DNA of 64,000 bases from Candidatus Doudnabacteria bacterium RIFCSPHIGHO2_01_FULL_46_14 (GTDB lineage Bacteria; Patescibacteriota; Doudnabacteria; UBA920; 2-01-FULL-46-14). The DNA lies in NCBI GenBank assembly GCA_001779925.1, contig MFEK01000014.1:1011-65010 (forward strand), in the 5' to 3' direction. The notes under the pieces are model-generated. The model did not search any database. It was not told the DNA's origin and worked only from the letters and a program-made list of their open reading frames with translations. Shown here piece by piece: positions 22,411-56,627 of this stretch. Numbering within the stretch: the first letter of the stretch is position 1; every line of letters starts with the position of its first letter. Both the position numbers and the translations under genes were made by a program.

Positions 22411-22411
22411 C

Positions 22412-24100: not shown

Positions 24101-24101
24101 T

Positions 24102-24842: not shown

Positions 24843-24844
24843 CT

Positions 24845-25741: not shown

Positions 25742-26585
25742 GGTTATTGTTGTCGGTGACCTCATTTTAGACATCTATCACTATGGCCATCCCCTCAAAG
25801 ATTCAGTTGAGGGGCTTCTTGCTATTGGTGAGGATAAAACTGAAGCATCTTTTGGCGGCGCAGGGCTATTGGTCCGCAATATTGTCCAGCTCGGCGGGCG
25901 GGTTGATTTCGTTACTGTTATTGGAAATGATGAGTTTGGCGACCTCGCGCAGAAATTTATCCGTCAAAACTTAAAGAAAACATTTTTTGTCGAAAATGGC
26001 CGCAAGACTACGGTCAAAGAGAGGTTTGTGGTGAATGGCAAAAAGGTTTTGAAATGGAATCATTTGGATAATCGGCCGCTCAATCCCGCAATTCAGAACA
26101 GAATTTTGCTTTACCTGGCAAAAAATATTAGAGGTTACGATAAACTTATCATTTCTGACTATCGCCATGGCCTCATTTCGCAGAGCTTTGCCCGCGCTCT
26201 GGTTGCACTCGGCAAAAAATTTAAAAAGCCGGTTTATGTTGATTCGCAGATCGCTCAAAGCAAAGGCAACCATGCCTGGTATAAAGGTGCTGATTTAATG
26301 TGTTTGAATGAATTGGAAGCAAAAAGCATCAAGGATGAGATCGACATTCCCAACATAATTTTGAAGCTAGGATCAAAAGGCTCGCTCGCAGTCATTGAAG
26401 GAAAGAAAATCCGCACACCGGCATTTAAGGTAAAGGTTGTAGACACTACTGGCGCTGGTGATGCGTTTTTTGCAGCGCTTGTGATCTCGAATTTTCCGCC
26501 AACTACCTCTGACTTGAAACGCGCCAACAAATGGGCAGCTTTGACCACAACAAAAATGGGCACCGAGCTTCCAAAAACCAGATAA
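25734..26585 (+). CDS. PfkB-family carbohydrate kinase, HldE-domain-I-like (heptose 7-phosphate kinase candidate)
   Basis: VIVVGDLILDIYHYG (compare HldE VMVVGDVMLDRYWYG). GGAGLLVRNIVQLGG. C-terminal VDTTGAGDAFFAAL anion-hole motif. Confidence 0.75.
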   Translation: MPKVIVVGDLILDIYHYGHPLKDSVEGLLAIGEDKTEASFGGAGLLVRNIVQLGGRVDFVTVIGNDEFGDLAQKFIRQNLKKTFFVENGRKTTVKERFVVNGKKVLKWNHLDNRPLNPAIQNRILLYLAKNIRGYDKLIISDYRHGLISQSFARALVALGKKFKKPVYVDSQIAQSKGNHAWYKGADLMCLNELEAKSIKDEIDIPNIILKLGSKGSLAVIEGKKIRTPAFKVKVVDTTGAGDAFFAALVISNFPPTTSDLKRANKWAALTTTKMGTELPKTR

Positions 26586-26633
26586 GAATCTGATATAATT
26601 GACAATCAAAACATTCAGGATTAGGATAATCAT

Positions 26634-26807
26634 ATGTCAGAAGACAAGCTGAGCAAAATTTTAGAAGTCGTTATCCACCTAAAAGATAAGATAGATAACG
26701 ATATGGTGACGAAAGACGAATTCGCAGAATTCAGGAGCGAGAACACTGCTCATATTGACGGTTTTATTAAGCTACATCAAACACTGGATACGTTGCGGGC
26801 GGGTTAG
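26634..26807 (+). CDS. Hypothetical small protein (57 aa), not in the ORF track
   Basis: ATG preceded by AGGA. MSEDKLSKILEVVIHLKDKIDNDMVTKDEFAEFRSENTAHIDGFIKLHQTLDTLRAG. No recognisable family. Confidence 0.25.
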   Translation: MSEDKLSKILEVVIHLKDKIDNDMVTKDEFAEFRSENTAHIDGFIKLHQTLDTLRAG

Positions 26808-26870
26808 GTAGGGGTGGTGAAAAGTTTCACCCTCCCCTTACCCCTCCCCTCAAGGGAGGGGAATAATGAG
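26803..26870. repeat. Full-length intergenic copy of the GC-rich poly-C/poly-G palindromic element
   Basis: GGGTTAGGTAGGGGTGGTGAAAAGTTTCACCCTCCCCTTACCCCTCCCCTCAAGGGAGGGGAATAATGAGG. Nested palindromes GGTGAAA/TTTCACC and CCCCTCCC/GGGAGGGG. The track ORF 26814..27005 is merely its translation. Confidence 0.75.
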
Positions 26871-27009
26871 GATTGCAAAAGGAGACCGTACAGATACAAT
26901 CAAAGCCTGCAATCTTATTTGGGGATGATAGGTCACAGCGATGGTTACGATCTCAGCATAGTCTTAAAGAATAACTTTTTCATACCTCGCGAGAAACGGA
27001 AATAACAAG

Positions 27010-27024
27010 TATAATGTCGGTATG
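27010..27024 (+). promoter_or_regulatory. Candidate leaderless promoter: TATAAT -10 box 6 nt upstream of the ATG
   Basis: gTATAATgtcggtATG. No SD and no room for a leader, so the transcript would start at or next to the start codon of the GT9 gene. Confidence 0.4.
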
Positions 27025-28026
27025 AAAATTCTTGTTGCTCAGCCCGGGAAAATCGGGGATTTGGTTTGTACTACGCCGCTTTTCCGCACACTTGCGGAAA
27101 ATTTCAAAGCGCCGGTGGATATTATTGCCGGGCCGTTTGCTCTGGATTTGCTCAAAGGCAATGATAGTGTTAGGGAAGTCTATTCGAGGAAGGTAGAGCC
27201 GGATATCCTGCGAAAAGAAAACTACACTCACATTCTCGTGCTCATGCCGAGTGTGGAGATTTGGGGACTCGCTAGAAAAGCGAGCATTTCGAATATCTGG
27301 AGCACGATTCATCCGAAAATGACCCGCCGTGAGCGGCTGTTTTCGTTTTTTTATCTGACTCGGAAATTTCCCTACAACTTCTCCTCTGCCCAGCAGCATT
27401 ATCTGCAGATGGGGCAGGCTCTGGGAGCCGCGAATCTGATTCAGAAGCGAGAGATTCGTTACGGCTCAGAGGACGAACAAAAGATAGCCGAGTTTTTGCG
27501 TGAGCAAAATCTGCAGGATAAAAAACTCGTTGGCATTTCCGTGACTGCAGGCAAGGATTTCAAAGAGTGGGGGAATCAAAATTACAAACAGCTCGTGGAT
27601 AAACTTAACAGCGAAAATTTTACGGTTATTGCTGTGGGCACCAAGGAAGAACGGCCAAAATTGGAGACGCTACAAAATTCACTTGCCCGCCAGGATATGT
27701 TTTTGAATGTAGCAGGGGATTTTAAACTCTCTGAATTTGCCGCGCTCGCCGTGAACTTTAGAGCCTTTATTGCCGCAGACACTGGGCCCCTGTATATTGC
27801 CGATGCGCTCGGCATCCCAGTTGTGGATCTCATGGGTCCCTGCTATTCTGGCGGACAAAAGCCTCTTGGCGAAAATGCCGTGCTAATCGGCGAATGCCTT
27901 AAACCAGAACACCCGAAATGCCGGATGATGGATAGCCCGAATTATTTAAAAGAAGAATTCCAGCGTTGCATGGCGGAAATCAGGTTTGAGGAAGTTTGGC
28001 AGGGTTTCCAAAGCTTAAAGCTATGA
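27022..28026 (+). CDS. Glycosyltransferase family 9 (heptosyltransferase-like)
   Basis: MKILVAQPGKIGDLVCTTPLFRTLAENFK.APVDII, the GT9 N-terminal signature (compare WaaC/WaaF: ..SSMGDV..T.PAL..L...P). Confidence 0.7.
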   Translation: MKILVAQPGKIGDLVCTTPLFRTLAENFKAPVDIIAGPFALDLLKGNDSVREVYSRKVEPDILRKENYTHILVLMPSVEIWGLARKASISNIWSTIHPKMTRRERLFSFFYLTRKFPYNFSSAQQHYLQMGQALGAANLIQKREIRYGSEDEQKIAEFLREQNLQDKKLVGISVTAGKDFKEWGNQNYKQLVDKLNSENFTVIAVGTKEERPKLETLQNSLARQDMFLNVAGDFKLSEFAALAVNFRAFIAADTGPLYIADALGIPVVDLMGPCYSGGQKPLGENAVLIGECLKPEHPKCRMMDSPNYLKEEFQRCMAEIRFEEVWQGFQSLKL

Positions 28027-29450
28027 TTACAGACGCAAAATCCATTCCTGCCGGAACGCAGATTAACACAGACATCTGCATTATCGGTTCTGGCGCGGCC
28101 GGTATTCCGCTTGCTTTGGAGTTTGAAAATTCGCGCACCCGCGCCTGCATTTTGGAGAGCGGGGGGTTTGAAGATGTTGTAGATTACAGTGATGTTTATC
28201 ATTTTATTTCCAGAGGCTTGCCAGTATCTTTGGATTCGAGGACACAAGGATTTGGCGGAACCACGCGCGCCTGGGCCGGCATTTGGAAGCCTCATGACGA
28301 GATAGATTTTCGGCTCCGTCCCTGGGTTAAATATTCGGGCTGGTCTGTCGCATTTCAGGAGTTGAGCGGCTATTATGACCGGGCCGCCCAATCAGTAGGC
28401 GCTTTTCCTTTGGAATTTTTTAATCCTCCGCTCGATGCCAAAACGTTAGAGGACAGCACTCTCAACACGACTCTGGTGCGTCTCATGAAACCTGAGGATT
28501 TGGATTTTGGCCGCAAATTTAAAAGCCGTTTTGAGAACGCAGACAATCTCCATGTTTATCTGCGCGCTGTGGTTACCAGTTTTGAAAGCAACCCCGGGCA
28601 CACCGAGGTACAAAGAGTCAGGATCGCGGCTCCGGGCAAAAAAGAATTTACGCTCACTGCAAAAATTTTCGTTTTGGCCGCTGGAGGAATCGAAAATGCC
28701 CGACTGCTTTTACTCTCCAATCTCGGCAACGAGCACGACCAGGTTGGACGTTATTATATGGACCACCCCAAAGGCAAGGTTGGCAGCGTTGCCCTCAATC
28801 ATGATATAAATATTGATTTAAATCAGTATTTTGGCGCGGAGGATTCAGCCGGCAAAGTTTTCGCCGGGTTGCGGCTTTCGGACAGATTGCAGGAGCAGAG
28901 GCAAGCACTCAATAGCTATGTACAGCTAAGCCCAGTTTACGAGCAGGAAGGTTTCATGGGAAAAACAGCTAGGAAAATTTTTGGCTTAAAGCGAAAAATG
29001 AAAAAAATCGAACTCAGAAATTTCATGGAACAGGAGCCCAATCCAGACAGCCGCATCACTCTCGGCGAGAAGTGCGACTCTCTTGGCTGTCCGCGCGCGG
29101 TGATTGATTGGCAGATTTCGGAAAAAGATAAAATTACCATGAAAACTCTGCATGAGGTTCTGCGCGATAAACTAGCAGGACTTGGGATTGGCAAGCTCGA
29201 AAGTCCTCTTCTCGAAAAAAATTTGCAAGATTGGCCCATCAAAACCGATGCCTCGCATCATATGGGAACAACGCGCATGGGCACAGATCCGCGGACATCA
29301 GTGGTTGATCCGAACTGCAAGATTCACAGTGTGGCAAATTTGTATGTTGCGGGCAGCAGCGTATTTCCTACCGGCGGGTATGCAAACCCAACAGCTACGA
29401 GCATTGCCCTGGCCTTGCGCTTGGCAGACCATTTGAAGAATCGAATATAG
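28023..29450 (+). CDS. GMC-family FAD-dependent oxidoreductase
   Basis: N-terminal GSGAAGIPLA FAD-binding fold. C-terminal HHMGTTRMG....VVD...KIHSVANLYVAGSSVFPTGGYANPTATSIALALR, the GMC C-terminal signature. Confidence 0.8.
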   Translation: MITDAKSIPAGTQINTDICIIGSGAAGIPLALEFENSRTRACILESGGFEDVVDYSDVYHFISRGLPVSLDSRTQGFGGTTRAWAGIWKPHDEIDFRLRPWVKYSGWSVAFQELSGYYDRAAQSVGAFPLEFFNPPLDAKTLEDSTLNTTLVRLMKPEDLDFGRKFKSRFENADNLHVYLRAVVTSFESNPGHTEVQRVRIAAPGKKEFTLTAKIFVLAAGGIENARLLLLSNLGNEHDQVGRYYMDHPKGKVGSVALNHDINIDLNQYFGAEDSAGKVFAGLRLSDRLQEQRQALNSYVQLSPVYEQEGFMGKTARKIFGLKRKMKKIELRNFMEQEPNPDSRITLGEKCDSLGCPRAVIDWQISEKDKITMKTLHEVLRDKLAGLGIGKLESPLLEKNLQDWPIKTDASHHMGTTRMGTDPRTSVVDPNCKIHSVANLYVAGSSVFPTGGYANPTATSIALALRLADHLKNRI

Positions 29451-29466
29451 AATTAGAATATTGATT

Positions 29467-30321
29467 ATGGAACGGAAAAAGAGAGTTTTGGTTATTGGGG
29501 CGGGTAAACGAGCGCAGGGAGCGATCATTCCAGCTCTTCTTGGCTTGTCTGCCGAGTATGAGATCGTGGCGGTTTACGCACGGAAAAAAAGGGAAATTAG
29601 GGTAATGGGGGAGCGGTTTACAATAATAGATAGTTTAGAGCAGGTGGATTTTTCTTCGCTTGATCTCATTATTGCGGCTGTCACCCTGGCAAGCGTGCCG
29701 GATGTTCTGCGGAAACTTACCAAATATGACGTGAGACATATCCGTATCATGCTCGATACCCCAGTGGTCAGGCCAAGGGATATTTTTAGTTTGCGAATGC
29801 TCAAGAATTTCCGGCACGCATCCGTAAGCGAGGATTCTATTGTCCTCGCGCCCTTTCTTGAAGCCAAAAGAGCAGGGGAAATTAGGGAAATGCGGTTTAT
29901 CCATAGCGGCTATCGTTACCACGCCCTCGCAGCTATGAAAATGATGACGGGAAACAATTACGTAAAAAGAGTGATCAATAAATACGCGAATGGCAAAATC
30001 GCGGAGCGGCATTTTTTGTTTCCGGGCGGCGCGCGTGGGGTCATCATTGAGCCCCGTGACTACAGCATTGGGAAACTGGAAATTGCAGGTTCAGCAGGCT
30101 TTTTCAATTATGAGTTTGCCGGTAAATCGATGGCGGATTTAAAAAATAAAAGCCTCGCGAAACTCATTGCTGACGAAGGCCTTGTTTATTCTGCGGCAGA
30201 CGGCGTTTATGATATGCTGGCCATCAGCTGCAGCGAAAAGCTTGGGAAGTTTTTTGATTTTCCAACGCGCCAATACTCGTTGTTATTATCGCTGATAAGA
30301 TTTATAATAGGTCATGGCTGA
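29467..30321 (+). CDS. Hypothetical protein with Gfo/Idh/MocA-like N-terminal Rossmann segment
   Basis: RVLVIGAGKRAQGAIIPAL...EIVAVYARKK. The rest is unassigned. Confidence 0.35.
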   Translation: MERKKRVLVIGAGKRAQGAIIPALLGLSAEYEIVAVYARKKREIRVMGERFTIIDSLEQVDFSSLDLIIAAVTLASVPDVLRKLTKYDVRHIRIMLDTPVVRPRDIFSLRMLKNFRHASVSEDSIVLAPFLEAKRAGEIREMRFIHSGYRYHALAAMKMMTGNNYVKRVINKYANGKIAERHFLFPGGARGVIIEPRDYSIGKLEIAGSAGFFNYEFAGKSMADLKNKSLAKLIADEGLVYSAADGVYDMLAISCSEKLGKFFDFPTRQYSLLLSLIRFIIGHG

Positions 30322-31258
30322 AAAAGTTTTTATCACCGGCGCCAGCGGATTTATAGGAGCAAATTTAATGCGGCGTTTATTGGCTGATGGCTTTGAGGTT
30401 ACTGCCGCTATCCGGCCGGGATCAAAAAATTTTTGGCGACTCGAGGACGTAACCGATCAAATCCGGATTCTACGGCTGGACCTGACGGACCAAAAAGATA
30501 CCGCAGAAAAGCTCGGACAAATAGGGCCAAATTACATTTTTCATCTCGCCGCCTACGGTGCTTACCCGGGGCAAATTGACAGCGAGCAAATGTGGAGAAC
30601 GAATTTATTTGCCGCGATAAATTTGATTGAGGCAGCCAAGGTTGTTGGCTTCCAAAAGATGATCATTGCCGGCAGCTCCTCGGAATATGGCAAGAAATCC
30701 GAGGCTATGAAAGAAAGCGACAGACTCGAACCCAGCACTATTTATGGGGTGAGCAAAGCCGCCTCCACTCTGTATTGTCAATATAGAGCCCGAGAGGAAA
30801 AATTACCGCTCGCGATTTTACGGCCGTTTTCTGTCTACGGACCGTGGGAAGAGCCAGGAAGGCTGGCGCCCCGATTGATTGGCCGGGCTTTGAAAAATGA
30901 GCCGCTGGAACTGGTGGGCAGTAAAACCGTGCGCGATTTTATATACATAGATGACGTGGTCGAGGCTTGCTTAAAAAGCATGAATGAAGATAAGATTAAC
31001 GGGCAGATTATGAATATTTGTTCGGGGATGCAGACTGAAATAGGAGAAATGGCTGAGCAGGTGGTCAGTATCACCGGCAGTAAATCGCGGGTCCAGCGCG
31101 GCAGTTATGAAGCGCGAAGCTTTGACACTGACATTTGGGTTGGTAATCCTGAAAAAACTAAAAAACTTCTCGGTTGGCAAGCCAGGGTCGCGCTCAAGGA
31201 AGGGATTCGCCAGACTGTTGAATGGTACAAATCCCATAAGCATTATTATGAACATTGA
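30314..31258 (+). CDS. NAD-dependent epimerase/dehydratase (extended SDR; NDP-sugar 4,6-dehydratase/epimerase candidate)
   Basis: KVFITGASGFIGANLMRRLLADG. YGVSKAAST (YxxxK). Confidence 0.75.
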   Translation: MAEKVFITGASGFIGANLMRRLLADGFEVTAAIRPGSKNFWRLEDVTDQIRILRLDLTDQKDTAEKLGQIGPNYIFHLAAYGAYPGQIDSEQMWRTNLFAAINLIEAAKVVGFQKMIIAGSSSEYGKKSEAMKESDRLEPSTIYGVSKAASTLYCQYRAREEKLPLAILRPFSVYGPWEEPGRLAPRLIGRALKNEPLELVGSKTVRDFIYIDDVVEACLKSMNEDKINGQIMNICSGMQTEIGEMAEQVVSITGSKSRVQRGSYEARSFDTDIWVGNPEKTKKLLGWQARVALKEGIRQTVEWYKSHKHYYEH

Positions 31259-32045
31259 TTATCGTCAATTGGAGCAGCACGCGCAAAACATCCGTCGTAA
31301 CGTCATTAAGATGGCTGTCCGCGCCAAATCCGCGCATCTGGGAGGAGTACTGTCCATAGTAGAAATTTTGACGGTGCTGTATTTTCAGATTTTGAAGATT
31401 GATCCGCAGGCCGCGCACGACCCTGACCGCGACCGTTTGATTTTCAGCAAGGGACACGCCGGACTGGCTTTGTACGCCGCTCTGGTAGAGAGAGGTTTCG
31501 CCGCTGAAGAGATTCTAGAAACTTTCTATAAAGACGATACAATGCTTACCGCTCATCCGACAAAGGACTGCATGCCGGGCGTGGAAACTACGACCGGTTC
31601 TCTCGGTCACGGTTTGCCTCTGGGAACAGGGCTTGCCTGGGCCGCTAAACACGACAACCAGCCGTTTCGAACGTTTGTCCTCATGAGCGACGGGGAGTGC
31701 GACGGAGGCTCGACCTGGGAAAGCATTTTGTTTGCCGGCCATCACCAGATGGATAACCTTATCGCCGTGGTTGATTACAACAAAATCCAGGGCTTCGGCA
31801 GAACAGCGGAAGTTTTGAATCTCGAACCATTCGTAAAAAAATGGGAGTCTTTCAACTGGGCAGTACAAGAAGTTGATGGTCACGACTTGGCCAAGCTTCA
31901 GGAAGTTCTTTCACAAGTTCCTTTCCAAACAGGAAAGCCCAGCGTGGTAATCGCCCATACTATAAAAGGTAAAGGCACAAGCCTTGAGGACACCCTGGAT
32001 TCTCATTATAAAATTCCGCCGGAATATGCGACCGACCTTCATTAA
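31248..32045 (+). CDS. Transketolase, N-terminal (ThDP pyrophosphate-binding) subunit of a split transketolase
   Basis: HLGGVLSIVEIL...DPDRDRLIFSKGHAGLALYAALVERGF; GSLGHGLPLGTGLAWAAK; MSDGECDGGSTWES. Confidence 0.8.
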   Translation: MNIDYRQLEQHAQNIRRNVIKMAVRAKSAHLGGVLSIVEILTVLYFQILKIDPQAAHDPDRDRLIFSKGHAGLALYAALVERGFAAEEILETFYKDDTMLTAHPTKDCMPGVETTTGSLGHGLPLGTGLAWAAKHDNQPFRTFVLMSDGECDGGSTWESILFAGHHQMDNLIAVVDYNKIQGFGRTAEVLNLEPFVKKWESFNWAVQEVDGHDLAKLQEVLSQVPFQTGKPSVVIAHTIKGKGTSLEDTLDSHYKIPPEYATDLH

Positions 32046-32955
32046 AACTTTGGTAGAACTGGCGCAAAAAGATGAACGAATCTTTTTACTGACCGGGGAT
32101 CTGGGCTACGCGGCGCTGGAGCCATTCCGGGAAAAATTTCCGAAACGATTTATCAACATGGGAGTTGCCGAACAAAATATGGCTGGTTTTGCGGCTGGCC
32201 TGGCCATGTCCGGCAAACTGCCGGTGGTTTACTCTATTGCCACTTTTGTGACGCTCAAGACGCTTGAGCAAGTCCGCAATGATATTTGTTATCAAAATCT
32301 AAATGTTAAAATCGTCGGGGTCGGGTCAGGCCTGACTTATTCTCAGTACGGGGCGACCCATCATTCACAGGAGGACATCGGCCTCATGCGCCTTTTACCC
32401 AATATGAAAGTAATCTGTCCCGGTGATCCCGTAGAGGTAGAGGCCGCAACGAGAGCGATGATGGCTGATCCGCAGCCCTGTTATCTGCGGATCGGATCGC
32501 GGGGCGAACCAGTACTGCATGAACCACCAATTGATTTTCAAATCGGCAAGGGGATCACGCTCCGGCCGGGAAAAGACATCGCGCTTGTGGCTACCGGCAA
32601 TATGCTAGAAAATACGATGAAAGCCGCAGAGCTGTTGCGCGGCAGCGGTTTATCGCCGCAAGTTGTAAGTATGCATACGGTCAAGCCGCTCGATGCGAAT
32701 TTATTGAAAGAGCTGTTCATAAATTTTCAGCAAGTATTCACGATCGAGGAACACAGTCAAATAGGCGGCTTTGGAAGCGCGGTCGCGGAACTGGCGGCTG
32801 AGCTTCATGACGGGCGGGCTAGTTTGCATCGAATCGCGCTGCCTGATCAGTTTCAGAAACTCGGTGCTTGGCTCGCGAGACTGCGTCAGGAAAACGGTTT
32901 GAGTCCGGAAGGGATTGCCGAAACCGTAAGAAAAATATATAATCAGACCTCATGA
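32025..32955 (+). CDS. Transketolase, C-terminal (pyrimidine-binding) subunit
   Basis: RFINMGVAEQNMAGFAAGLAMSGKLPVVYSIATF. Transketolase C-terminal-domain pattern. 21-bp overlap with the N-terminal subunit gene. Confidence 0.8.
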
Positions 32956-33920
32956 TTACAGATAAAAAAATCTCCGCGGTAATTGCCTGCTATATGGATG
33001 GCCAGTCCATTCCGGTTATGTATCAGCGTTTGACCGCAGTATTTCGTCAGGTAACGCCTTATTATGAAATAATTTTCGTTAACGACGGCAGTCTTGATGA
33101 TTCGGAAGAGATTTTAACCGCGCTCGCAAGTAAAGATAAGCGCGTAGTCGCGGTGAATCACGCCCGCAATTTCAGTTCCCAAAACGCTTTTCTTTCCGGA
33201 ATGCATGTTGCTACCGGTGATGCAGTGGTATTGCTCGATGGTGATTTACAGGATCCGCCGGAGATGATCCCGGATTTTGTCCGCAAATGGCTGGAAGGGT
33301 ATGATGTTGTTTACGGCGTCAGATCCAAACGGGAAGCGAGTTTGTTTCTGCGCGCGAGCTATAAACTCTTTTATCGGATTTTTCAAAAGCTGTCATATGT
33401 GCCGGTGCCGCTTGACGCAGGCGATTTTTCCTTACTCGACCGGAAAATCGTGAATGTTTTGGACGCGATGCCGGAGCGGGATATCTTTTTACGCGGATTG
33501 CGCGCCTGGGTCGGGTTTAAGCAAGTGGGGGTTTCTTATGTCCGGCCGGAGCGGATGTTTGGCCGCAGCAACAATAATCTGATAAAGAATTTTCGCTGGG
33601 CCAGAAAAGGGATTTTTTCATTTTCTTATGCTCCCCTGGAATGGGTTTCTTATGTTGCCGGGATAGTCACGGTTTTAGCAGCCCTCACTATCGTCGTTTA
33701 CGTAGCGCTCTTTTTTATTTACGGAGCTCCACAAGGATTTATCACCACCTTGGTCATCACTTTGTTTTTGGGCACCATACAACTGCTGGCATTGTCCGTG
33801 ATCGGCGAGTATGTGGCTAAGATCTTTGAAGAGGTCAAATCTCGTCCTAAATATATTGTGAAGAGCATATTTAATGATCCAAGAAATAAACCTCGCGATC
33901 CGGGTTTGCCAGAATCGTGA
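32952..33920 (+). CDS. GT2 polyprenyl-phosphate glycosyltransferase (ArnC/GtrB/DPM1-like) with C-terminal TM helices
   Basis: ISAVIACYMDGQSI; EIIFVNDGSLDDS; VLLDGDLQDPPEMIPDFV; two C-terminal TM helices. Confidence 0.8.
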   Translation: MITDKKISAVIACYMDGQSIPVMYQRLTAVFRQVTPYYEIIFVNDGSLDDSEEILTALASKDKRVVAVNHARNFSSQNAFLSGMHVATGDAVVLLDGDLQDPPEMIPDFVRKWLEGYDVVYGVRSKREASLFLRASYKLFYRIFQKLSYVPVPLDAGDFSLLDRKIVNVLDAMPERDIFLRGLRAWVGFKQVGVSYVRPERMFGRSNNNLIKNFRWARKGIFSFSYAPLEWVSYVAGIVTVLAALTIVVYVALFFIYGAPQGFITTLVITLFLGTIQLLALSVIGEYVAKIFEEVKSRPKYIVKSIFNDPRNKPRDPGLPES

Positions 33921-33948
33921 TATTATTGTATAATTTGAAGACTTAAAT

Positions 33949-35229
33949 ATGGATAACCAAGAGTTTAGACCCGGCATTGATCGGGTATTATATACTAAAG
34001 CGGTTTACGGGGAAGAAGAAATTGCCGCGGTTGCCAAGGCCCTTCGCGAGGGATGGCTTGGCAATGGGAAGTACACGGAAGAATTTGAGCAAAAGACCGC
34101 TGAGCTATATGGGAAGAAATACGGGCTGTTCGTCAACTCCGGCACTTCGGCCAACATGCTGGCCATGGAGATCGCCAAACTCCCCAAGGGCAGTGAAGTC
34201 ATTACCCAGGCCTGTACGTTTCCGGCAACTCTGTCTCCCATTGTTCAGCAGGGGTTCATCCCGGTGTTCGTTGATTCCAAGATCGGTTCCTATAACATTG
34301 ATTTAGATCAAATCGAGCCGGCAATTTCTGAAAATACGAAAGCCGTTTTTATTTCGCATGCCCTGGGTAACGTCAATCACATGCGCCGTTTGCGGGAGAT
34401 TTGCGATAAATATAAATTGCTGTTTATAGAGGATGCCTGCGACACGATCGGCTGTAAATTTGCTGGCCGGCCTACCGGCGAATATTCGGACATTACTACT
34501 GCGAGTTTCTATGCCGCGCACAATATCACCGCGGGCGGCGGCGGCGGCATGGTTATGGCGAGCGACCCGAAACTCATTTTAGAGGCGAGAATGCTTAACG
34601 ACTGGGGGAGAGCCATGCCTACCTCCGCGGACGAAAATCTGGGAGAGCGTTTTGCCGGCAAGCTGGCCGATACTGATTTTGACGCGAAATTTACTTTTAT
34701 CAAGCAAACCTACAATTTCAAAGCAGTGGAGATGCAAGCGGCATTCGGGCTGGAACAGCTGAAAAAATTGCCGCAGTTTAACGCCAGACGCGCCAGGAAT
34801 TTCCGGCGCCTTTATGATTTTTTTGATCAGCACCGAGAACATTTTTTGCTGCCGGAAATTTTGCCGCAAGCCGAAGTTTATCTGATTGCTTTTCCGGTGA
34901 CAATCAAACCGGAGTCTCCCATAAATCGCAAAGAGCTGATGCTGTTTCTCGAAGAAAACAAAATTCAAACCCGTCCTCTGTTTGCCGGCAATATCCTGCG
35001 GCATCCGGCATTCAAAAACATTACCAAGCGCGTTCACGGCCAAATGGTCAACTCTGACCTGGTTATGAAATATAGCTTCCTGATCGGGTGTCATCATGGC
35101 ATGACTGATAGCATGCTTGACTATATGCTGGGCATTTTCGAAAAGTTTTTGAAAATGATGGAAACCAGGAAAACGCAAAAGATTTTTGAACAAGTCGAGT
35201 TAATTGATTTAAGAGACGACATTCCGTGA
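33949..35229 (+). CDS. DegT/DnrJ/EryC1/StrS-family PLP-dependent sugar aminotransferase/dehydratase
   Basis: ALREGWLGNGKYTEEFEQKTAELYGKKYGLFVNSGTSANMLAM; FISHALGNV; GCHHGMTDSMLDYM. Confidence 0.8.
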   Translation: MDNQEFRPGIDRVLYTKAVYGEEEIAAVAKALREGWLGNGKYTEEFEQKTAELYGKKYGLFVNSGTSANMLAMEIAKLPKGSEVITQACTFPATLSPIVQQGFIPVFVDSKIGSYNIDLDQIEPAISENTKAVFISHALGNVNHMRRLREICDKYKLLFIEDACDTIGCKFAGRPTGEYSDITTASFYAAHNITAGGGGGMVMASDPKLILEARMLNDWGRAMPTSADENLGERFAGKLADTDFDAKFTFIKQTYNFKAVEMQAAFGLEQLKKLPQFNARRARNFRRLYDFFDQHREHFLLPEILPQAEVYLIAFPVTIKPESPINRKELMLFLEENKIQTRPLFAGNILRHPAFKNITKRVHGQMVNSDLVMKYSFLIGCHHGMTDSMLDYMLGIFEKFLKMMETRKTQKIFEQVELIDLRDDIP

Positions 35230-37046
35230 AGCTTTCCGATTATTTAGTTCAGTACCTTGTAGATTTGAATGTCAAGCACGTTTTTTTAGTTATTGGGGGA
35301 GCATGCGCGATTCTTGTTGACGCGATCGGTAAAAACAAGAATCTAAAATACGTTTGCACGCAGCACGAACAAAGCGCGGCCATGGCTGTGGATGCATATT
35401 CGCGCATGACGCAGAACTTCGGCGTGGCAGTCGTAACGTCCGGACCGGGAGCGACCAATCTCATTACCGGCATTTGCTGCGCTTATTTTGATTCGATCCC
35501 GTGTTTGTTTATTGGCGGCCAGGTGAACATTTGGGAAACAAAAGGGGACAAAAAGATCCGCCAGCTTGGTTTTCAGGAAACCGATATCATTGATATGGTT
35601 AAACCAATCACCAAATTTGCGGTTCTGGTCAAGGCGCCGGAAAAGATAAAATATTATTTGGAAAAGGCCGTGTATCTGGCTAAATCCGGCCGGCCGGGTC
35701 CTGTGTGGCTCGACATCCCCATGAATGTCCAGCAGGCTGAAATCGATCCCGACACTCTCGTGGGTTTTGATCCGTCTGAGCTTGGAGAAAAACCGGCAGA
35801 TGTGGCTCAGGAAACTATCTTTAAAATCTTAGCAGAGCTTAAAAAGGCCAAGCGGCCGGTGGTTATCGCCGGATCGGGGATCAAGCTTGGCAAAGCGCAA
35901 ATAGATTTTCTTGAATTTATTAAAAAATTCCGCGCTCCGGTTATTTCCACTTGGAGCGGCGTAGATATTTTACCCTATGATCACGAACTCTATATAGGGC
36001 AATTTGGAGTGTACGGAAATCGCGCGGCGAATTTCACCGTTCAAAACGCAGATCTTGTTCTCAGTCTCGGGTCGCGTCTTGATACCAGGCAGACAGGGGG
36101 GCAGCCAAAAACCTTTGCAAGAGCGGCCAAAAAGATTGTCGTGGATATTGACCGGGGCGAGCTGGAAAAAGACTGGGTAGTGGCGGACCTTCCCGTGTGC
36201 GCGAACGTTAAAGACGTGCTCACAAAACTCAATGATAGTCAGAATGAGACTTTGGAATTTCCAGATTGGCTTGTCAAAGCCAAAGAATGGAAGCAGCGCT
36301 ATCCGGCGGTTCTTCCCGAATTCTACGATCAGAAAGGCTCGGTCAATTCCTATGTTTTTGCCAAAACCTTATCAGAAAAACTCCAGCCGGGCGCGGTGGT
36401 GGTTGCGGACCAGGGGGGCAATCTGACCTGGACAATACAGGCTTTTCAGGTAAAAAACGGACAGCAGCTTTTTTCCGCGTTTGGCAACTCGCCCATGGGT
36501 TACGCTTTGCCCGCGGCCATTGGCGCGGCATTCGCGCGTCCGGGAGAGGCGATTATCTGCATTGACGGCGATTGCGGATTTCAGATGAACATTCAGGAAC
36601 TGCAGACAGTCAAATATTACAATCTGCCGATCAAAATATTTATTTTGAACAATCATTCATACGGCATTATCAAGCAGTTCCAGGAGATTTATTTTGAAGG
36701 ACGCTACACTGCAACTACGCCGGAGACTGGCTACAGCGTGCCGGATTTCATAAAGATCTCCGAGGCTTACGGCATTCCTACGATGACAATCTCTAATCAT
36801 CAGGAACTTTTGGGAAAACTTGACCAAATCCTGGAAGCTGAGGGACCGATTCTCTGCGACGTAATTCTTGACGAGAACCAGAAGCTTATTCCCAAGCTGG
36901 TCTCTGTAAGAAACACTGAAGGCCGCTACATCAGCAGGCCCATAGAAGATTTGTCTCCGCCCTTGTCGCGCGAAGAGCTCAAGGCCAACATGATCGTGAA
37001 AATGCTTGATGAAGAGAAAAGTGAAAAACCCACGGAGATAAACTAA
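35226..37046 (+). CDS. Thiamine-diphosphate enzyme, acetolactate-synthase-large-subunit-like (YerE-like branched-sugar synthase candidate)
   Basis: HEQSAAMAVDAYSRMTQNFGVAVVTSGPGATNLITGICCAYFDSIPCLFIGGQV (ThDP N-terminal domain). Central FAD-like domain. C-terminal GDCGFQMN...NN ThDP-binding motif. Confidence 0.75.
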   Translation: MKLSDYLVQYLVDLNVKHVFLVIGGACAILVDAIGKNKNLKYVCTQHEQSAAMAVDAYSRMTQNFGVAVVTSGPGATNLITGICCAYFDSIPCLFIGGQVNIWETKGDKKIRQLGFQETDIIDMVKPITKFAVLVKAPEKIKYYLEKAVYLAKSGRPGPVWLDIPMNVQQAEIDPDTLVGFDPSELGEKPADVAQETIFKILAELKKAKRPVVIAGSGIKLGKAQIDFLEFIKKFRAPVISTWSGVDILPYDHELYIGQFGVYGNRAANFTVQNADLVLSLGSRLDTRQTGGQPKTFARAAKKIVVDIDRGELEKDWVVADLPVCANVKDVLTKLNDSQNETLEFPDWLVKAKEWKQRYPAVLPEFYDQKGSVNSYVFAKTLSEKLQPGAVVVADQGGNLTWTIQAFQVKNGQQLFSAFGNSPMGYALPAAIGAAFARPGEAIICIDGDCGFQMNIQELQTVKYYNLPIKIFILNNHSYGIIKQFQEIYFEGRYTATTPETGYSVPDFIKISEAYGIPTMTISNHQELLGKLDQILEAEGPILCDVILDENQKLIPKLVSVRNTEGRYISRPIEDLSPPLSREELKANMIVKMLDEEKSEKPTEIN

Positions 37047-37050
37047 CATA

Positions 37051-37998
37051 ATGACCAATAAAAAAATTTCAGTAATAGTGATTTGTTATAATGACGGCGG
37101 CAGCGTGCAGGAAATGTACCGGCGCGTTACTGAAAGCATGCGTCAGATTACTGACAACTACGAGATCGTTTACGTCAATGACGCGAGTCCCGACAATGCT
37201 TATGAGCGCCTTAAGGTGCTTGCAGAAAAAGATAAGCGGCTCGTGGTTATAACGCATACCCGCAATTTCGGCGGTCAAAACGCTTATACCTCGGGACTCG
37301 AGTATTGCACGGGCGATGCGGCCATAACGCTTGACGGCGATATTCAGGACCCGCCGGAAATGTTTCCGAAGCTTGTAGAGAAATGGCTCGCTGGCTACGA
37401 AATCGTTTATGGCGACCGCGTGGAAAGAGAGGGGAGCATCATCCGTAGAATTTTTTATAAAATATTTTACAAAGTCTTCAGTGCCATGTCCGCAGTAAAA
37501 ATGCCGCTCAATGCCAGCGATTTTGCGCTCCTGGACCGTAAAGTGATCGATGCGCTAAAAAATATGCCCGAATCCGGCCGGTTTATCCGCGGTATGCGCG
37601 CCTGGACCGGGTTTAAAAGCATCGGCATTCCTTATAAGCGCTTGGCGCGGTTTTCCGGCCGCACCAACCTGACTTTTTTGGGCAACGTGCGCTGGGCCAG
37701 GCTCGCGATTTTTTCTTTTTCCGACCGCCCTTTGGAATGGATCTCGTATTTGGCGATGATCATGACATTTTTGGCCGCGTTAGGAATCGTTTTTTATATT
37801 ATATTTGCGATTTTCAATCCCGCCCCGTCCGGCTTTTTGACTATTCTCGTTTCCGTATTGTTTTTGGGAGCCATCCAGCTTTTATCCCTGAGCGCCATCG
37901 GCGAATACATTGCCCGAATTTTTGAAGAGGTCAAGAACCGCCCGAAATATATCCGCAGGGAGATACTAAATGATTACAAAGGAGAAATAAAAAAATGA
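37051..37998 (+). CDS. GT2 polyprenyl-phosphate glycosyltransferase (ArnC/GtrB-like), paralog of 32952..33920
   Basis: ISVIVICYNDGGSV; EIVYVNDASPDNA; ITLDGDIQDPPEMFPKLV; two C-terminal TM helices. Confidence 0.8.
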   Translation: MTNKKISVIVICYNDGGSVQEMYRRVTESMRQITDNYEIVYVNDASPDNAYERLKVLAEKDKRLVVITHTRNFGGQNAYTSGLEYCTGDAAITLDGDIQDPPEMFPKLVEKWLAGYEIVYGDRVEREGSIIRRIFYKIFYKVFSAMSAVKMPLNASDFALLDRKVIDALKNMPESGRFIRGMRAWTGFKSIGIPYKRLARFSGRTNLTFLGNVRWARLAIFSFSDRPLEWISYLAMIMTFLAALGIVFYIIFAIFNPAPSGFLTILVSVLFLGAIQLLSLSAIGEYIARIFEEVKNRPKYIRREILNDYKGEIKK

Positions 37999-39155
37999 AG
38001 CTCTCAAAGGCCGCGGAAAAACTCAAAGGCAGTCCCATGTTTCAGTTTTTGGCCAAAGCCCAAGAGCTGGAGCGACAGGGCCGGAAAATTTATCATTTTG
38101 AAATCGGCGATCCGGATTTTGATACGCCCGAGCATGTGAACCGCGCCGGCATAGAAGCCATAGAAAAAGGGGAGACGCACTATGTCAATTCCCTGGGCAT
38201 CCGCGAGCTGCGGGAGGCGATTTGCGAGGAAACCGAAAAAACTTTGGGCTTCAAACCCGACCTTGACCAGGTGGTGATCGCGCCGGCGATTTCTTTTATC
38301 TATTTTGTAACGCGCTGCGTGGCCGATCCCGGCGATGAGGTCATTGTGCCGGATCCGGGATTTTCTTCGTATTATTCCGCCTTCGACTTCATTGGCGTGA
38401 AATGGGTCAGCGTACCCCTGCGCGAGGAGAATGAGTTTCGTATGAATTCCAAGGATATTGAGGAGCGCATCACTCCAAAAACGAAACTCATCATTATTAA
38501 TTCGCCGCAAAATCCGACCGGCGCTGTCATGACGCGCGAAGAACTCGAAGAGGTTGGCAGGATCGCGGAGAAGCACGGCATTTATCTCTTAACAGACGAG
38601 ACCTACGGCAAGATGACTTATGAATATCCGCACTATTCGCCAGCCACACTTGATAAATGCCGCAAGCAGACCATTATTTTAAATAGTTTTTCTAAAACTT
38701 ACGCCATGACTGGCTGGCGCCTCGGTTGGGCCGTAGCGCCCAAAGAGTTGGTTATTAAGCTGGGACTCATGATCCAGACAATTATCTCTGCAGTGCCGCC
38801 GTTTATTCAGAAAGCCGGCATAGCCGCGCTCCGGGGGGACCAGTCGTTTATTACGAAAAGTTTAAAAGAATACCAAAGCCGCCGCGATGTCATGGTCAGG
38901 ATATTAAATGAAATGCCTGGCGTAAAATGCTTTAGCCCCAAAGGCGCATTTTACGTTTTTCCGAATATTACTGGCACTGGCATGACTAGCGAAGAGTTTA
39001 CCAATTTTGCCCTGGAAAAAGCCGGTGTAGTTTTGCTTCCCGGGACGACTTTCGGCCAGTACGGGGAAGGTTATGTGCGTCTTGTCTACGCCAATTCGCT
39101 CGCGAACATTGAAGAAGGGCTGACCAAGCTGAAACAGGCTCTATTGCAGAAATAG
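37995..39155 (+). CDS. Class I/II pyridoxal-phosphate-dependent aminotransferase (aspartate-aminotransferase-like)
   Basis: NSPQNPTGAVMTREEL; SFSKTYAMTGWRLGWAVAP (PLP-lysine region). Confidence 0.8.
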   Translation: MKLSKAAEKLKGSPMFQFLAKAQELERQGRKIYHFEIGDPDFDTPEHVNRAGIEAIEKGETHYVNSLGIRELREAICEETEKTLGFKPDLDQVVIAPAISFIYFVTRCVADPGDEVIVPDPGFSSYYSAFDFIGVKWVSVPLREENEFRMNSKDIEERITPKTKLIIINSPQNPTGAVMTREELEEVGRIAEKHGIYLLTDETYGKMTYEYPHYSPATLDKCRKQTIILNSFSKTYAMTGWRLGWAVAPKELVIKLGLMIQTIISAVPPFIQKAGIAALRGDQSFITKSLKEYQSRRDVMVRILNEMPGVKCFSPKGAFYVFPNITGTGMTSEEFTNFALEKAGVVLLPGTTFGQYGEGYVRLVYANSLANIEEGLTKLKQALLQK

Positions 39156-39200
39156 CACGTCTGAGTTAAACTGACTGGAAATCTAGAAGAGGAGGTTTTT

Positions 39201-39836
39201 ATGAAGTGGATTGTTGTGGTCGGGGCTTTAAGCAGTTTTGGGCAACCGATTTGCAAGAGGTTGTTTGATGCTGGATTTGGCATTTATGGAGTAGGCGTGC
39301 ATCTGAAAAAAGATGTGATTTATGATCCTGCAGTGTTCTCGTTCGACAGGGTTGACATCACCAATAGGGATGATACTGCCGAATTTTTCCGCGGGATCAG
39401 GAAAAAAGAGGTAGCGGGGCTCGTCAATGCTGCGCGGTTTGTACCATCGGTGTCAGATCCAGTTCGGCTAAATCTCGAAGTATCTGTAAGAATGTGGGAG
39501 ACCAATGTTCAGGGACTCGCTTATTTAGTCGACGAATTCATGTCTTCCGCAACGCGAAACCATTGGCCGCCTCCATTGACTGTGGTCGATATCGCTGATT
39601 GCGAACAAAGAGTTGGAGTGCATCCGCTTTTTTCGGCCGCAATGAGCGCAAGACGCAGGATGGGTTTTGAGTTGGCGGCCTTATATCAGAATCTGCGGAT
39701 TAAAACCATTATCCGTAAGGCCGAGGACACGCCGGAGCAGATCGCCGAAGCCGTGGAACTTCTGATGTTCGGGCAGTGCAAAGATTTCATCGGCGAATAC
39801 ACGCCAACACCAGATTCGGACTTTGCAACGAGATAG
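39201..39836 (+). CDS. Divergent SDR-like Rossmann protein
   Basis: VVVGALSSFGQPICKRLFDAGFGIYGV glycine-rich N-terminus. Canonical SD GAGGAGG upstream. Catalytic motifs are degenerate. Confidence 0.4.
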   Translation: MKWIVVVGALSSFGQPICKRLFDAGFGIYGVGVHLKKDVIYDPAVFSFDRVDITNRDDTAEFFRGIRKKEVAGLVNAARFVPSVSDPVRLNLEVSVRMWETNVQGLAYLVDEFMSSATRNHWPPPLTVVDIADCEQRVGVHPLFSAAMSARRRMGFELAALYQNLRIKTIIRKAEDTPEQIAEAVELLMFGQCKDFIGEYTPTPDSDFATR

Positions 39837-39909
39837 ACCATCAACGAGCCGGCAGAAGACCTTATTAGGACTTGCTGCCGGTTCAACATTTTTGCCATAA
39901 TAGCTTATT

Positions 39910-39996
39910 ATGAACCCCGTTAGAAATCTTAACTTCTTACGGCGGCGACAAATTAAATGATAAGCAAATAATTAAAATAGGATTTCTAACGGGGTG
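39910..39996 (+). repeat. MITE-like gene-junction element J4
   Basis: TATGAACCCCGTTAGAAAT ... ATAGGATTTCTAACGGGGTGAAAA. Here the element's TGA does not terminate an annotated gene. Confidence 0.8.
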
Positions 39997-40746
39997 AAAA
40001 TTTTTATAACTGGAGTATCTTCGGGAATAGGGCAGGAAACAGCCAGGCTTTTGATTTCCGCGGGGCATGAAGTTTGGGGCATAGCCAGAAGAAAGGATTT
40101 ACTGGATAAATTGGCGGATGAGCTGAATTCGCCGTATTTTTTTTATTCCCAGTGCGATGTGGCAATCGAGGAAGATGTAAATAACACTATTCAGCTTATG
40201 GCGGAGAAAAATTTTATGCCTGATGTTGCGGTGCTCAATAGCGCGATTTTTCCAAAAGATCTGAAGGACGGGTTTGATTTCAGTGCTTTTCGAAAGACCT
40301 TTGCCGTGAATTGCTTTGGCGCTTTAATCTGGGTAGAAAAGTTTTTGCCAAAATTTTTAGAAAGAGGCTCAGGAAAATTTTTGGCCATAGCTTCTACCTC
40401 TGCCTTCCGGCCTGATCCGGCAAGCGTTTCTCTGCCTGCCTCAAAAGCGGCTCTGTCCATGGCGTTTCGGAGCATGGGGCTACGTCATAATCAGTCTGGC
40501 GTGAAATTTACCATAGTGTATTTTGGGCCGGTGGCGACTGACATAGTTCCCGAGTTTCGCGATACAAAAGGCCTCGGCAAACTGTTTGTTATGAATCCGC
40601 AGACCGCCGCGCAGAAATTAGTAAAAGCGATTTTTGGTAATAGCGCTATTTATTATTTTCCGTTCTGGCTGACTCTGATTTTCCGCTTGACCTTGTTTTT
40701 GCCAGATCGCCTGTTTTCGGCATTGAGCAAGAAAATAAAGAGATAA
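39994..40746 (+). CDS. SDR-family oxidoreductase (GTG start from junction element)
   Basis: MKIFITGVSSGIGQETARLL; catalytic ...ASKAALSMAF. Confidence 0.75.
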   Translation: MKIFITGVSSGIGQETARLLISAGHEVWGIARRKDLLDKLADELNSPYFFYSQCDVAIEEDVNNTIQLMAEKNFMPDVAVLNSAIFPKDLKDGFDFSAFRKTFAVNCFGALIWVEKFLPKFLERGSGKFLAIASTSAFRPDPASVSLPASKAALSMAFRSMGLRHNQSGVKFTIVYFGPVATDIVPEFRDTKGLGKLFVMNPQTAAQKLVKAIFGNSAIYYFPFWLTLIFRLTLFLPDRLFSALSKKIKR

Positions 40747-46381: not shown

Positions 46382-46449
46382 ACCCCGTTAGAAATGTCTG
46401 TAAATTTCAGCGAGCGGTGCATAATTAATAATTAATTTCTAACGGGGTG
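46379..46449 (+). repeat. MITE-like gene-junction element J6 (shortest copy)
   Basis: TGAACCCCGTTAGAAAT-gtctgtaaatttcagcgagcggtgcataattaataatta-ATTTCTAACGGGGTGAAAA. Confidence 0.8.
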
Positions 46450-48549: not shown

Positions 48550-48633
48550 ACCCCGCGTTAGAAATTTCCGATTACAACGGTATAACTATAATTATGAAAA
48601 TAATATTAACTCAAAAGGATTTCTAACGGGGTG
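48547..48633 (+). repeat. MITE-like gene-junction element J7
   Basis: TGAACCCCGCGTTAGAAAT ... AAGGATTTCTAACGGGGTGAAAA. Confidence 0.8.
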
Positions 48634-56624: not shown

Positions 56625-56627
56625 TCG

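Follow-up and report, generated by a model that had tools for sequence, protein, structure and literature searches.

Several groups of thiamine diphosphate (ThDP)-dependent enzymes have been linked to the addition of carbon branches to sugars. YerE-type carboligases (YpYerE of the yersiniose A pathway, JanthE, ErwE, and MyGE) have the three-domain fold of the decarboxylase superfamily; the genes of the yersiniose pathway follow the order ddhA-ddhB-ddhC-yerE, and ErwE and MyGE use unusual 2-oxo acids (PMC9306805). The two-subunit alpha-KADH2 enzymes (AlmDI/DII of aldgarose and KbDH-alpha/beta) likewise place a two-carbon branch on a keto-deoxysugar and are pyruvate-using enzymes of the E1 alpha/beta type. 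Finally, for the miharamycin and amipurimycin pathways, split-gene transketolases (TKs) have been proposed as the enzymes that move hydroxyacetyl to a keto sugar, with 13 candidates, all from Streptomycetes and uncharacterized (PMC12247030); our search of the literature on transketolases in O-antigen, rfb, or branched-sugar settings returned nothing beyond one review. Here we describe a 64,000-nucleotide stretch of contig MFEK01000014.1 from Candidatus Doudnabacteria bacterium RIFCSPHIGHO2_01_FULL_46_14 (hereafter the window, 64 kb in length), in which a YerE-like enzyme and a split transketolase share one operon (30314..40746). On balance, we favor the reading that this operon encodes two independent ThDP enzymes that would form C-C bonds on nucleoside diphosphate (NDP)-activated deoxysugars, each followed by its own family 2 polyprenyl-phosphate glycosyltransferase (GT2).

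An initial annotation made from the sequence alone had described a split transketolase and an acetolactate synthase-like ThDP enzyme around a DegT-family gene and an ArnC-like GT2. Pfam and NCBIfam profile searches confirmed this arrangement, and all of the open reading frames (ORFs) concerned are present on the forward strand with strong domain matches (Table 1). The genes from 30314 to 39155 form a same-strand run whose members abut or overlap: an extended short-chain dehydrogenase/reductase (SDR) overlaps the N-terminal TK subunit (TK-N) by 11 nt, TK-N overlaps the C-terminal subunit (TK-C) by 20 nt, and a 3-dehydratase overlaps the start of the ThDP carboligase by 4 nt. Since the same gene order was found on two independent metagenome contigs from the Joint Genome Institute (JGI), the arrangement is not an assembly artifact. 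The genes for TK-C and for a sugar C-methyltransferase had been correctly recognized, with starts at 32025 and 60206 that are out of frame; both begin with ATG, at 32026 and 60205, respectively, and the start codon of the ThDP carboligase is GTG. The RfbF/RmlB/RmlC/RmlD set is also present as annotated, with RmlB, RmlC, and RmlD above their NCBIfam cutoffs and the RfbF-like nucleotidyltransferase (NTase) below its own.

We assign the ThDP carboligase with high confidence, from its sequence relationships, to the YerE-type sugar-branching enzymes and not to the acetolactate synthases. Its Pyr, middle, and PP domains are all matched (E < 1e-31). In scoring across the whole PDB, the best matches were 8rph (413 bits), which is JanthE (PMC12188165), and 5ahk (373 bits), while true acetohydroxyacid synthases (AHAS) reached at most 290 bits. 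The alignment with 8rph runs over the full length, including a C-terminal tail shared with JanthE. In a neighbor-joining tree of the window protein, JanthE, 5ahk, and 19 relatives from fetched loci, with only IlvB, IlvI, and Gcl of Escherichia coli as the outgroup, the window protein grouped with JanthE, 5ahk, and the metagenome relatives to the exclusion of the outgroup in 100 of 100 bootstraps; the AHAS outgroup is small, yet the PDB-wide scoring agrees with the tree. JanthE and 5ahk are its nearest sequence relatives with solved structures, though only ~37 to 39% identical. NCBIfam ranks AHAS large-subunit models first for this protein, and JGI annotates its relatives as such, which might suggest a genuine AHAS of branched-chain amino acid synthesis that lies in a glycan island by chance. 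However, none of these models reaches its equivalog cutoff (440 bits against 538 for TIGR00118 and 428 against 738 for another AHAS model), JanthE and 5ahk are closer than any AHAS, synteny with sugar genes is kept, and the 58 ORFs annotated in the window include neither an AHAS small subunit nor any ilv gene, such as ilvC or ilvD. An AHAS at this position is hardly credible, and we regard that reading as effectively refuted. The initial annotation had anticipated a YerE-like enzyme and had named a position among true acetolactate synthases, with ilv genes nearby, as evidence against it; the protein falls instead in the YerE-like clade, and the window holds no ilv gene. By these comparisons, it is a new member of the known YerE family.

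The gene context of the carboligase also follows that of the described systems. It stands directly after an NDP-hexose 3-dehydratase, as yerE stands after ddhC, and an NTase and an RmlB domain are encoded elsewhere in the window. A metagenome scan recovered more than 570 relatives, many in loci ordered NTase, SDR, RfbH-like dehydratase, ThDP enzyme, and GT2 (e.g., L101, L103, and L106; L numbers denote individual loci), an order that matches the ddhA-ddhB-ddhC-yerE logic of the yersiniose pathway. Wherever a complete DegT-like neighbor was present within 2.5 kb of the ThDP gene, it was a His-type dehydratase (27 of 27 loci), with the Fe-S type in 10 loci and a Cys-less type in 17. The closest homologues share 55 to 70% identity, and those with names belong to Patescibacteria, such as Yanofskybacteria and Doudnabacteria. 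Yanofskybacteria keep the module (RfbH-like dehydratase, ThDP enzyme, a 185-aa protein of unknown family, GT2, aminotransferase at 73% identity, and short SDR); the TK is absent from it. In L001, L003, and L093, the immediate neighbor of the ThDP gene encodes an ortholog of the 185-aa protein (36 to 39% identity). We also observed a deeper branch of ThDP enzymes (43 to 46% identity; L125, L133, L137, L146, L148, L150, L155 to L157, L160, L163, and L169) whose genes lie in another conserved module, with a ~350-aa protein distantly similar to TK-C and E1-beta (21 to 30% identity) in which H473 is replaced by Q or T. A PfkB kinase gene is often also part of this second module, as is one for a GalE-like SDR.

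The DegT-family gene preceding the carboligase belongs to that family as first annotated; its predicted function is that of a His-type 3-dehydratase and not of an aminotransferase. It scores 400 bits against the NCBIfam RfbH model (cutoff, 423), and its best PDB match is the E1 dehydratase of Yersinia (3bcx, 300 bits); ColD scores 170 bits. E1 (DdhC/RfbH/AscC) and ColD both have the DegT fold and a catalytic His in place of the pyridoxal phosphate (PLP)-binding lysine, as does the window protein, whose motif SFYAAHNIT aligns with SFYPAHHIT of E1. Unlike E1, it has no cysteine in the region aligned to CYCAPGCDNTC, the [2Fe-2S] site, and the E1 sequence WGRDCYCAPGCDNTCKKRF is replaced by WGRAMPTSADENLGERF. 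None of the ORFs annotated in the window encodes an E3- or ferredoxin reductase-type protein, which is a further difference from the YerE systems. Since the diagnostic His is present and the Fe-S cysteines of E1 are absent, the protein is probably ColD-like and would carry out a glutamate-dependent 3-deoxygenation; ColD uses glutamate. A second dehydratase in the window has the motif SFYGSHVIN and also lacks the Cys cluster. Its orthologs (58 to 60% identity) lie directly beside TK pairs in three loci from the candidate phyla radiation (CPR; L016, L024, and L066) and in L032, and it may be the TK's own dehydratase partner.

An aminotransferase is a conserved neighbor of the carboligase, which also distinguishes the module from the YerE systems and suggests a donor other than free pyruvate. 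Its best PDB matches are aspartate/aromatic aminotransferases of Pyrococcus horikoshii (1gd9 and 1dju, 289 bits). In L094, L098, L099, and L100, its ortholog is the immediate neighbor of the ThDP gene, and the 73% identical ortholog is that of L001; given this adjacency, we consider the enzyme a partner of the carboligase. It may supply the 2-oxo acid donor or aminate the branch ketone. By analogy with the unusual 2-oxo acids used by ErwE and MyGE, donor supply appears the probable role, and therefore the branch need not be acetyl. A role as glutamate recycler for the ColD-like dehydratase was considered but is not supported by co-occurrence: an aminotransferase of this kind is encoded within 4 kb of just 1 of 31 Cys-less dehydratases, and it is the ThDP gene that the aminotransferase accompanies. 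The short SDR downstream, with orthologs of 44 to 46% identity in the ThDP loci L001 and L095, is a candidate branch ketoreductase that could act as a functional analogue of YerF.

Each ThDP module ends in or includes a GT2 with PF00535 at residues 7 to 168 and two visible C-terminal hydrophobic helices (approximately residues 233 to 290). For the first, the best NCBIfam models were PgfS (222 bits) and ArnC (170 bits), each under its cutoff, and orthologs follow TK-C in L007 to L010, L014, and L062. The second scores 243 bits against PgfS, again under the cutoff, with orthologs of 57 to 64% identity beside the ThDP gene in L001 and L095. GT2s with C-terminal membrane helices together with PMT_2- or YfhO-type proteins recall the ArnC/ArnT, GtrB/Gtr, CsbB/YfhO, and PgfS/PgfM systems; the window differs from the ArnC and PgfS systems in that all of its GT2 scores are below equivalog cutoffs and in its predicted cargo, C-branched deoxysugars. 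It differs from the YerE systems in that the carboligase is followed by a polyprenyl-phosphate GT2, in a host that, by its best hits, is probably a CPR bacterium without lipopolysaccharide (LPS).

The nearest solved structure to the split transketolase is the conventional, active split TK of Carboxydothermus hydrogenoformans (6yak for TK-N, 211 bits; 6yaj for TK-C, 219 bits), with which it shares the two-chain organization and cofactor ligands. With residues numbered as in E. coli TktA, the pair has the domain set and the cofactor and catalytic residues of a canonical transketolase (EC 2.2.1.1), keeping H26, H66, H100, L116, D155, G156, N185, H261, R358, E411, F437, and H473. TK-N carries the changes Q118H, G154S, and G262Y and has G-F for I189-D190, while TK-C carries F434I, H461G, and D469Y; C. 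hydrogenoformans keeps Q118, I189-D190, G262, F434, H461, and D469. In an alignment of up to 86 TK-N and 82 TK-C sequences of the subfamily, Q118H was found in 84 of 86, G154S in 76 of 86, G262Y in 83 of 86, F434I in 77 of 82, and H461G in 81 of 82, with D469 replaced by L, Y, or Q. At the position equivalent to S385, alignments give either an A or a gap. H461 normally binds the substrate phosphate, and H461 and D469, along with S385 and R520, recognize phosphorylated 2-hydroxy-aldoses (PMC3657141); engineered variants at H461, D469, and R520, as described in these sources, shift E. coli TK toward nonphosphorylated aldehydes (PMC3657141; PMC5073344). Since the H461/D469 site is remodeled, with the residues for phosphorylated aldoses lost in the window pair, the natural subfamily looks adapted to a different acceptor.

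The closest homologues of the TK (~60% identity) lie in an SDR-TKN-TKC-GT2 cassette on three unrelated contigs (L007, L009, and L010), one with a 426-aa DegT gene next and one with a duplicated TK pair. A scan of one genome per species for the motifs SDGEC and GSLGHGL returned at least 597 confirmed species matches, distributed among CPR, DPANN, Acidobacteriota, Planctomycetota, Verrucomicrobiota, Chloroflexota, Proteobacteria (among them Bradyrhizobium diazoefficiens and Hoeflea), Paenibacillus validus, Paractinoplanes, and others. Genes with this signature nearly always lie within nucleotide-sugar operons. We annotated 79 TK loci by BLAST against the window proteins; contigs were often incomplete, and the co-occurrence counts are lower bounds. 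A DegT/RfbH-like gene lies within 2.5 kb of TK-N in 41 of the 79 loci and an extended SDR in 31, while an RfbF-like NTase lies within 8 kb in 17. The TK pair takes the yerE position in several operons, following an NTase, an SDR/4,6-dehydratase-like gene, and a 3-dehydratase in L031 (checked with Pfam), L076, L077, and L082. The miharamycin and amipurimycin TKs are likewise split pairs in sugar-tailoring clusters beside an oxidoreductase that might provide the keto acceptor; compared by context only, those 13 sequences belong to antibiotic clusters, whereas the window subtype is found in cell-surface glycan operons. The conserved gene context and the altered acceptor site support the sugar-tailoring role that the initial annotation had suggested for the split TK. 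Its statement that transfer of glycolaldehyde units to keto sugars by transketolases is known was too strong, as this is a published proposal only and has never been demonstrated (PMC12247030). The most likely function of the window pair, held with moderate confidence on the basis of residues and context, is transfer of hydroxyacetyl to an NDP-keto-deoxysugar. Extending this to all SDGEC/GSLGHGL split TKs, as a widespread unrecognized class that would put hydroxyacetyl on ring ketones of NDP-deoxysugars, is a more tentative proposal that falls somewhat short of even odds.

In most of 11 loci, an SDR with GS(S/Q)xEYG and YGxxK motifs lies immediately 5' of TK-N, as in the window. In the PDB, the window SDR is matched best by MoeE5 and by GalE-type enzymes, none of which exceeds 130 bits. 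Neither its motifs nor these matches allowed assignment of a specific function, with an epimerase, a decarboxylase, or a reductase all possible; it would either make or reduce a sugar keto group. Immediately 5' of it (27996..30321) are a GMC-family oxidoreductase with a pyranose oxidase-like C terminus and a 286-aa protein without a family match, both absent from the other TK loci examined. In L007, an erwiniose-like set (192..4827) with a 615-aa ThDP enzyme, an HMGL/DmpG-type pyruvate aldolase, an acetaldehyde dehydrogenase, and an RmlD-like SDR lies ~5 kb from the SDR-TKN-TKC-GT2 cassette, a second instance of two branching systems side by side. Pfam shows the ~610-aa ORF immediately 5' of the TK pair in L031 (8139..9974) to be a fusion of GNAT acetyltransferase and DegT aminotransferase, and L077 has a DegT-like ORF of the same size in this position (8163..9980; BLAST only). 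A carbonyl installed by the TK might accordingly undergo amination and N-acetylation; at least 6 loci have Lys-type aminotransferases flanking the TK.

Three other functions for the TK deserve consideration. The first is that of an ordinary pentose phosphate enzyme feeding sedoheptulose-7-phosphate or xylulose-5-phosphate to a heptose-like module upstream (22379..28026, same orientation), which encodes a TalC/FSA-like transaldolase, an RpiB/HldE-C-like nucleotidyltransferase fusion, an HldE-N-like PfkB kinase, a HAD phosphatase, and a GT9 "heptosyltransferase." With the transaldolase, RpiB, and the HldE-like kinase and nucleotidyltransferase 5 to 9 kb 5' of the TK, a sugar-phosphate link is possible and counts against a tailoring role, as do the retention of all catalytic histidines and R358 and the conventional nature of the nearest solved structure. 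However, H461 and D469 are replaced throughout the subfamily, and the SDR-TKN-TKC-GT2 cassette recurs without any pentose phosphate gene. A transaldolase lies within 8 kb of TK-N in only 1 of the 79 loci, beside a second, canonical TK pair (in L022, the split pair next to the transaldolase keeps the canonical residues and the pair in the sugar cluster has the signature). We consider a pentose phosphate function quite unlikely and rejected the idea that the TK mainly serves the heptose-like module, since the cassette recurs without those genes and the acceptor residues are noncanonical. The module is of separate interest. It also encodes an AraD-like L-ribulose-5-phosphate 4-epimerase (269 bits, above the cutoff) and resembles an ADP-heptose-type (or lincosamide octose-type) pathway with RpiB in the place of GmhA; such a pathway would be surprising in a bacterium that has no LPS and probably belongs to the CPR. 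Homologues of the RpiB fusion and the PfkB kinase lie beside relatives of the ThDP carboligase in L157, L160, and L164.

A second alternative is that the TK pair resembles 1-deoxy-D-xylulose 5-phosphate synthase (DXS) or the E1-type alpha-KADH2 enzymes and decarboxylates pyruvate, which would yield an acetyl in place of a hydroxyacetyl branch. TK-C scores nearly equally against the NCBIfam models for DXS (178 bits) and TK (187 bits), DXS chains rank second in the PDB, and the two-subunit enzymes with experimental support for acetyl branching are of the E1 alpha/beta type. TK-N, by contrast, is clearly of the transketolase type, with 142 bits for Transketolase_N (PF00456) against 41 for DXP_synthase_N and 24 for E1_dh (PF00676), which also sets the pair apart from alpha-KADH2. 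Furthermore, H26 is conserved in 85 of 86 subfamily sequences and H261 in 83 of 86, and we take these two residues to be those that contact the C1 hydroxyl of the donor in TK structures. Use of pyruvate in this way therefore appears unlikely, if less so than a pentose phosphate role.

Third, the TK might extend or trim a sugar chain, adding a two-carbon unit to an exocyclic aldehyde of an NDP-sugar or acting on a free sugar phosphate before activation. Aldehydes are the normal acceptors of TKs, and acceptance of a ketone by a TK has never been demonstrated. A C6 aldehyde could be formed by the products of two partial NDP-sugar dehydrogenase-like genes in the window, and a UDP-glucose dehydrogenase (UGDH)-like domain fused to a methyltransferase is encoded near the TK cassette in L009. 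Yet across the annotated loci such dehydrogenases do not consistently accompany the TK, whose recurring neighbors are 3-dehydratases and SDRs of the 4,6-dehydratase type, enzymes that generate ring ketones. We give chain extension little credence. The two dehydrogenase-like ORFs are tandem and overlapping (7283..8113 and 8091..8909; 276 and 272 aa); both cover only approximately positions 69 to 295 of a 413-position profile, without the start of the NAD domain and without the entire C-terminal domain.

Returning to the view that two ThDP enzymes branch two NDP-deoxysugars, a pathway can be proposed. The RfbF-like NTase would form NDP-glucose, which the RmlB domain of a GT2 fusion would convert to NDP-4-keto-6-deoxyglucose, and the Fe-S-free dehydratase (or its second copy) would strip the 3-hydroxyl by a ColD-like pyridoxamine phosphate (PMP) mechanism to give NDP-3,6-dideoxy-4-ketohexose. 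In the YerE-like module, the carboligase is predicted to decarboxylate a 2-oxo acid on ThDP, probably provided by the aminotransferase, and to join the resulting acyl anion to the C4 ketone of this sugar; the branch ketone of the 4-C-acyl product would then be reduced by the short SDR. In the TK module, dihydroxyethyl-ThDP would be formed from a ketose phosphate or hydroxypyruvate, and the remodeled pocket would put the unit on an NDP-keto-deoxysugar and not on an aldose phosphate, producing a hydroxyacetyl-branched sugar, with the extended SDR making or reducing the relevant carbonyl. The two GT2s would transfer the completed sugars to polyprenyl phosphate. The YfhO-like and PMT_2 proteins, judged by analogy with ArnC/ArnT, GtrB/Gtr, and CsbB/YfhO, are candidate GT-C enzymes that would use the polyprenyl-phosphate sugars outside the membrane, moving them to a surface glycan or protein. 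The initial annotation's reading of the cluster as a source of a C-branched deoxysugar is supported by the YerE-type placement of the carboligase, the linkage to a 3-dehydratase, and the context and acceptor site of the TK.

Several points weigh against this pathway or widen its range. We infer all of its reactions from homology and gene context. The nucleotide carrier could be either CDP or dTDP, the TK donor any of a ketose phosphate, hydroxypyruvate, or pyruvate, and the TK acceptor any of a C4 ketone, a C3 ketone, or an exocyclic aldehyde. The structure 5ahk was deposited as an acetolactate synthase, and we presume that it is PpYerE; the trees lacked authentic Yersinia YerE, ErwE, MyGE, and the miharamycin and amipurimycin TKs. 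The ThDP motif of the carboligase (residues 448 to 450) reads G-D-C...NN, where the closest relatives have GDG, and 90% or more of the sequences aligned (the window protein and 21 close homologues, 22 in all) keep G at the third position. The recurrence of GDC in two metagenomes rules out a read error; in JanthE, an active enzyme, the motif is CDG. In the TK, the position equivalent to R520 aligns ambiguously. A clearly His-type dehydratase lies within 2.5 kb in only 13 TK loci, and 6 carry only Lys-type aminotransferases, so that the acceptor may differ among operons.

Table 1. Features of the putative sugar-branching operon and of related glycan genes in the window
Feature	Position	Strand	Profile match
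Extended SDR (NDP-sugar epimerase/dehydratase/reductase fold)	30314..31258	+	PF01370, 1.2e-53
TK-N, split transketolase N-terminal (ThDP diphosphate-binding) subunit, 265 aa	31248..32045	+	PF00456, 3.9e-41
TK-C, split transketolase C-terminal (pyrimidine-binding and C-terminal domain) subunit, 309 aa	32026..32955	+	PF02779, 4e-33; PF02780, 2e-26
First GT2, polyprenyl-phosphate glycosyltransferase (ArnC/GtrB/PgfS-like), final gene of the TK cassette	32952..33920	+	PF00535
First 3-dehydratase, E1/RfbH-like, for NDP-4-keto-6-deoxyhexose (DegT family)	33949..35229	+	PF01041, 1.5e-85
YerE-type three-domain ThDP carboligase (acetolactate synthase-like fold)	35226..37046	+	PF02776, PF00205, PF02775
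Second GT2, polyprenyl-phosphate glycosyltransferase (ArnC/PgfS-like), partner of the YerE-like module	37051..37998	+	PF00535
Class I/II (aspartate/aromatic-type) amino acid aminotransferase	37995..39155	+	PF00155, 4e-66
Short SDR, classical short-chain dehydrogenase	39994..40746	+	PF00106, 1.9e-30
185-aa protein of unknown family, accompanies the ThDP gene	40797..41354	-	No Pfam match
RmlC (3,5-epimerase) and RmlD (4-reductase)	45710..47325	+	TIGR01221, 173 bits (>156); TIGR01214, 243 bits (>224)
Second 3-dehydratase, RfbH-like, His-type, without Fe-S cysteines	47332..48549	+	NCBIfam RfbH, 338 bits (below cutoff)
Glucose-1-phosphate cytidylyltransferase-like NTase (RfbF/DdhA-like)	48631..49395	+	TIGR02623, 278 bits (cutoff, 300)
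GT2 fused to RmlB (NDP-glucose 4,6-dehydratase) domain, 608 aa	58410..60236	+	PF00535, PF16363
NDP-sugar C-methyltransferase (TylC3/EvaC-type domain set)	60205..61458	+	PF08421, PF13489, PF08484
YfhO-like polytopic membrane protein	61455..63755	+	PF09586
PMT_2 protein	4642..6078	-	PF13231
PMT_2 protein	11050..12723	+	PF13231

The remainder of the window is devoted to glycan biosynthesis almost throughout, and a tRNA scan found no tRNA in its 64 kb. In the fusion protein at 58410..60236, a complete RmlB domain above the equivalog cutoff (TIGR01181, 383 bits against 365; residues 264 to 589) is joined to a GT2 in one polypeptide. Two ORFs break the glycan island at 54777..57569: one encodes a 554-aa PIF1-type helicase, and the other, a small one, resembles, as judged by eye only, an ArsR-type helix-turn-helix regulator. 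After these, ~1.2 kb holds only small ORFs (122 aa or less). At the 5' end of the window, positions 1 to 4000 have a GC content of 53%, compared with 45 to 49% across the rest, and 15..3833 is a 1,272-aa ORF without a Pfam match.

Among the determinants of antigenicity and of antibiotic activity, C-branched sugars are rare, and the enzymes that make them are also wanted as catalysts for chiral tertiary alcohols. Few YerE-type enzymes have been characterized, and this locus and its relatives reveal a large and diverse clade with two kinds of dehydratase partner, in which the conserved aminotransferase hints at new donor substrates. We propose that the transketolase is the more interesting part of the operon, as a broadly distributed, signature-bearing subtype with a possible role in branching. 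TK-type branching has hitherto been a hypothesis for 13 Streptomyces genes. The signature residues, the recurring cassette, and the existence of carriers in culture (Bradyrhizobium diazoefficiens SZCCT0138, Paenibacillus validus NBRC 15382, Adhaeretor mobilis HG15A2, Hoeflea sp. AS60, and Paractinoplanes deccanensis) now make it directly testable. If it is true, sugars with hydroxyacetyl or dihydroxyethyl branches, along with aminated forms of them, would be common yet overlooked in microbial surface glycans, and the window would make two differently branched sugars side by side, in what is probably a small-genome CPR bacterium of groundwater that spends most of 64 kb on an elaborate surface glycan.

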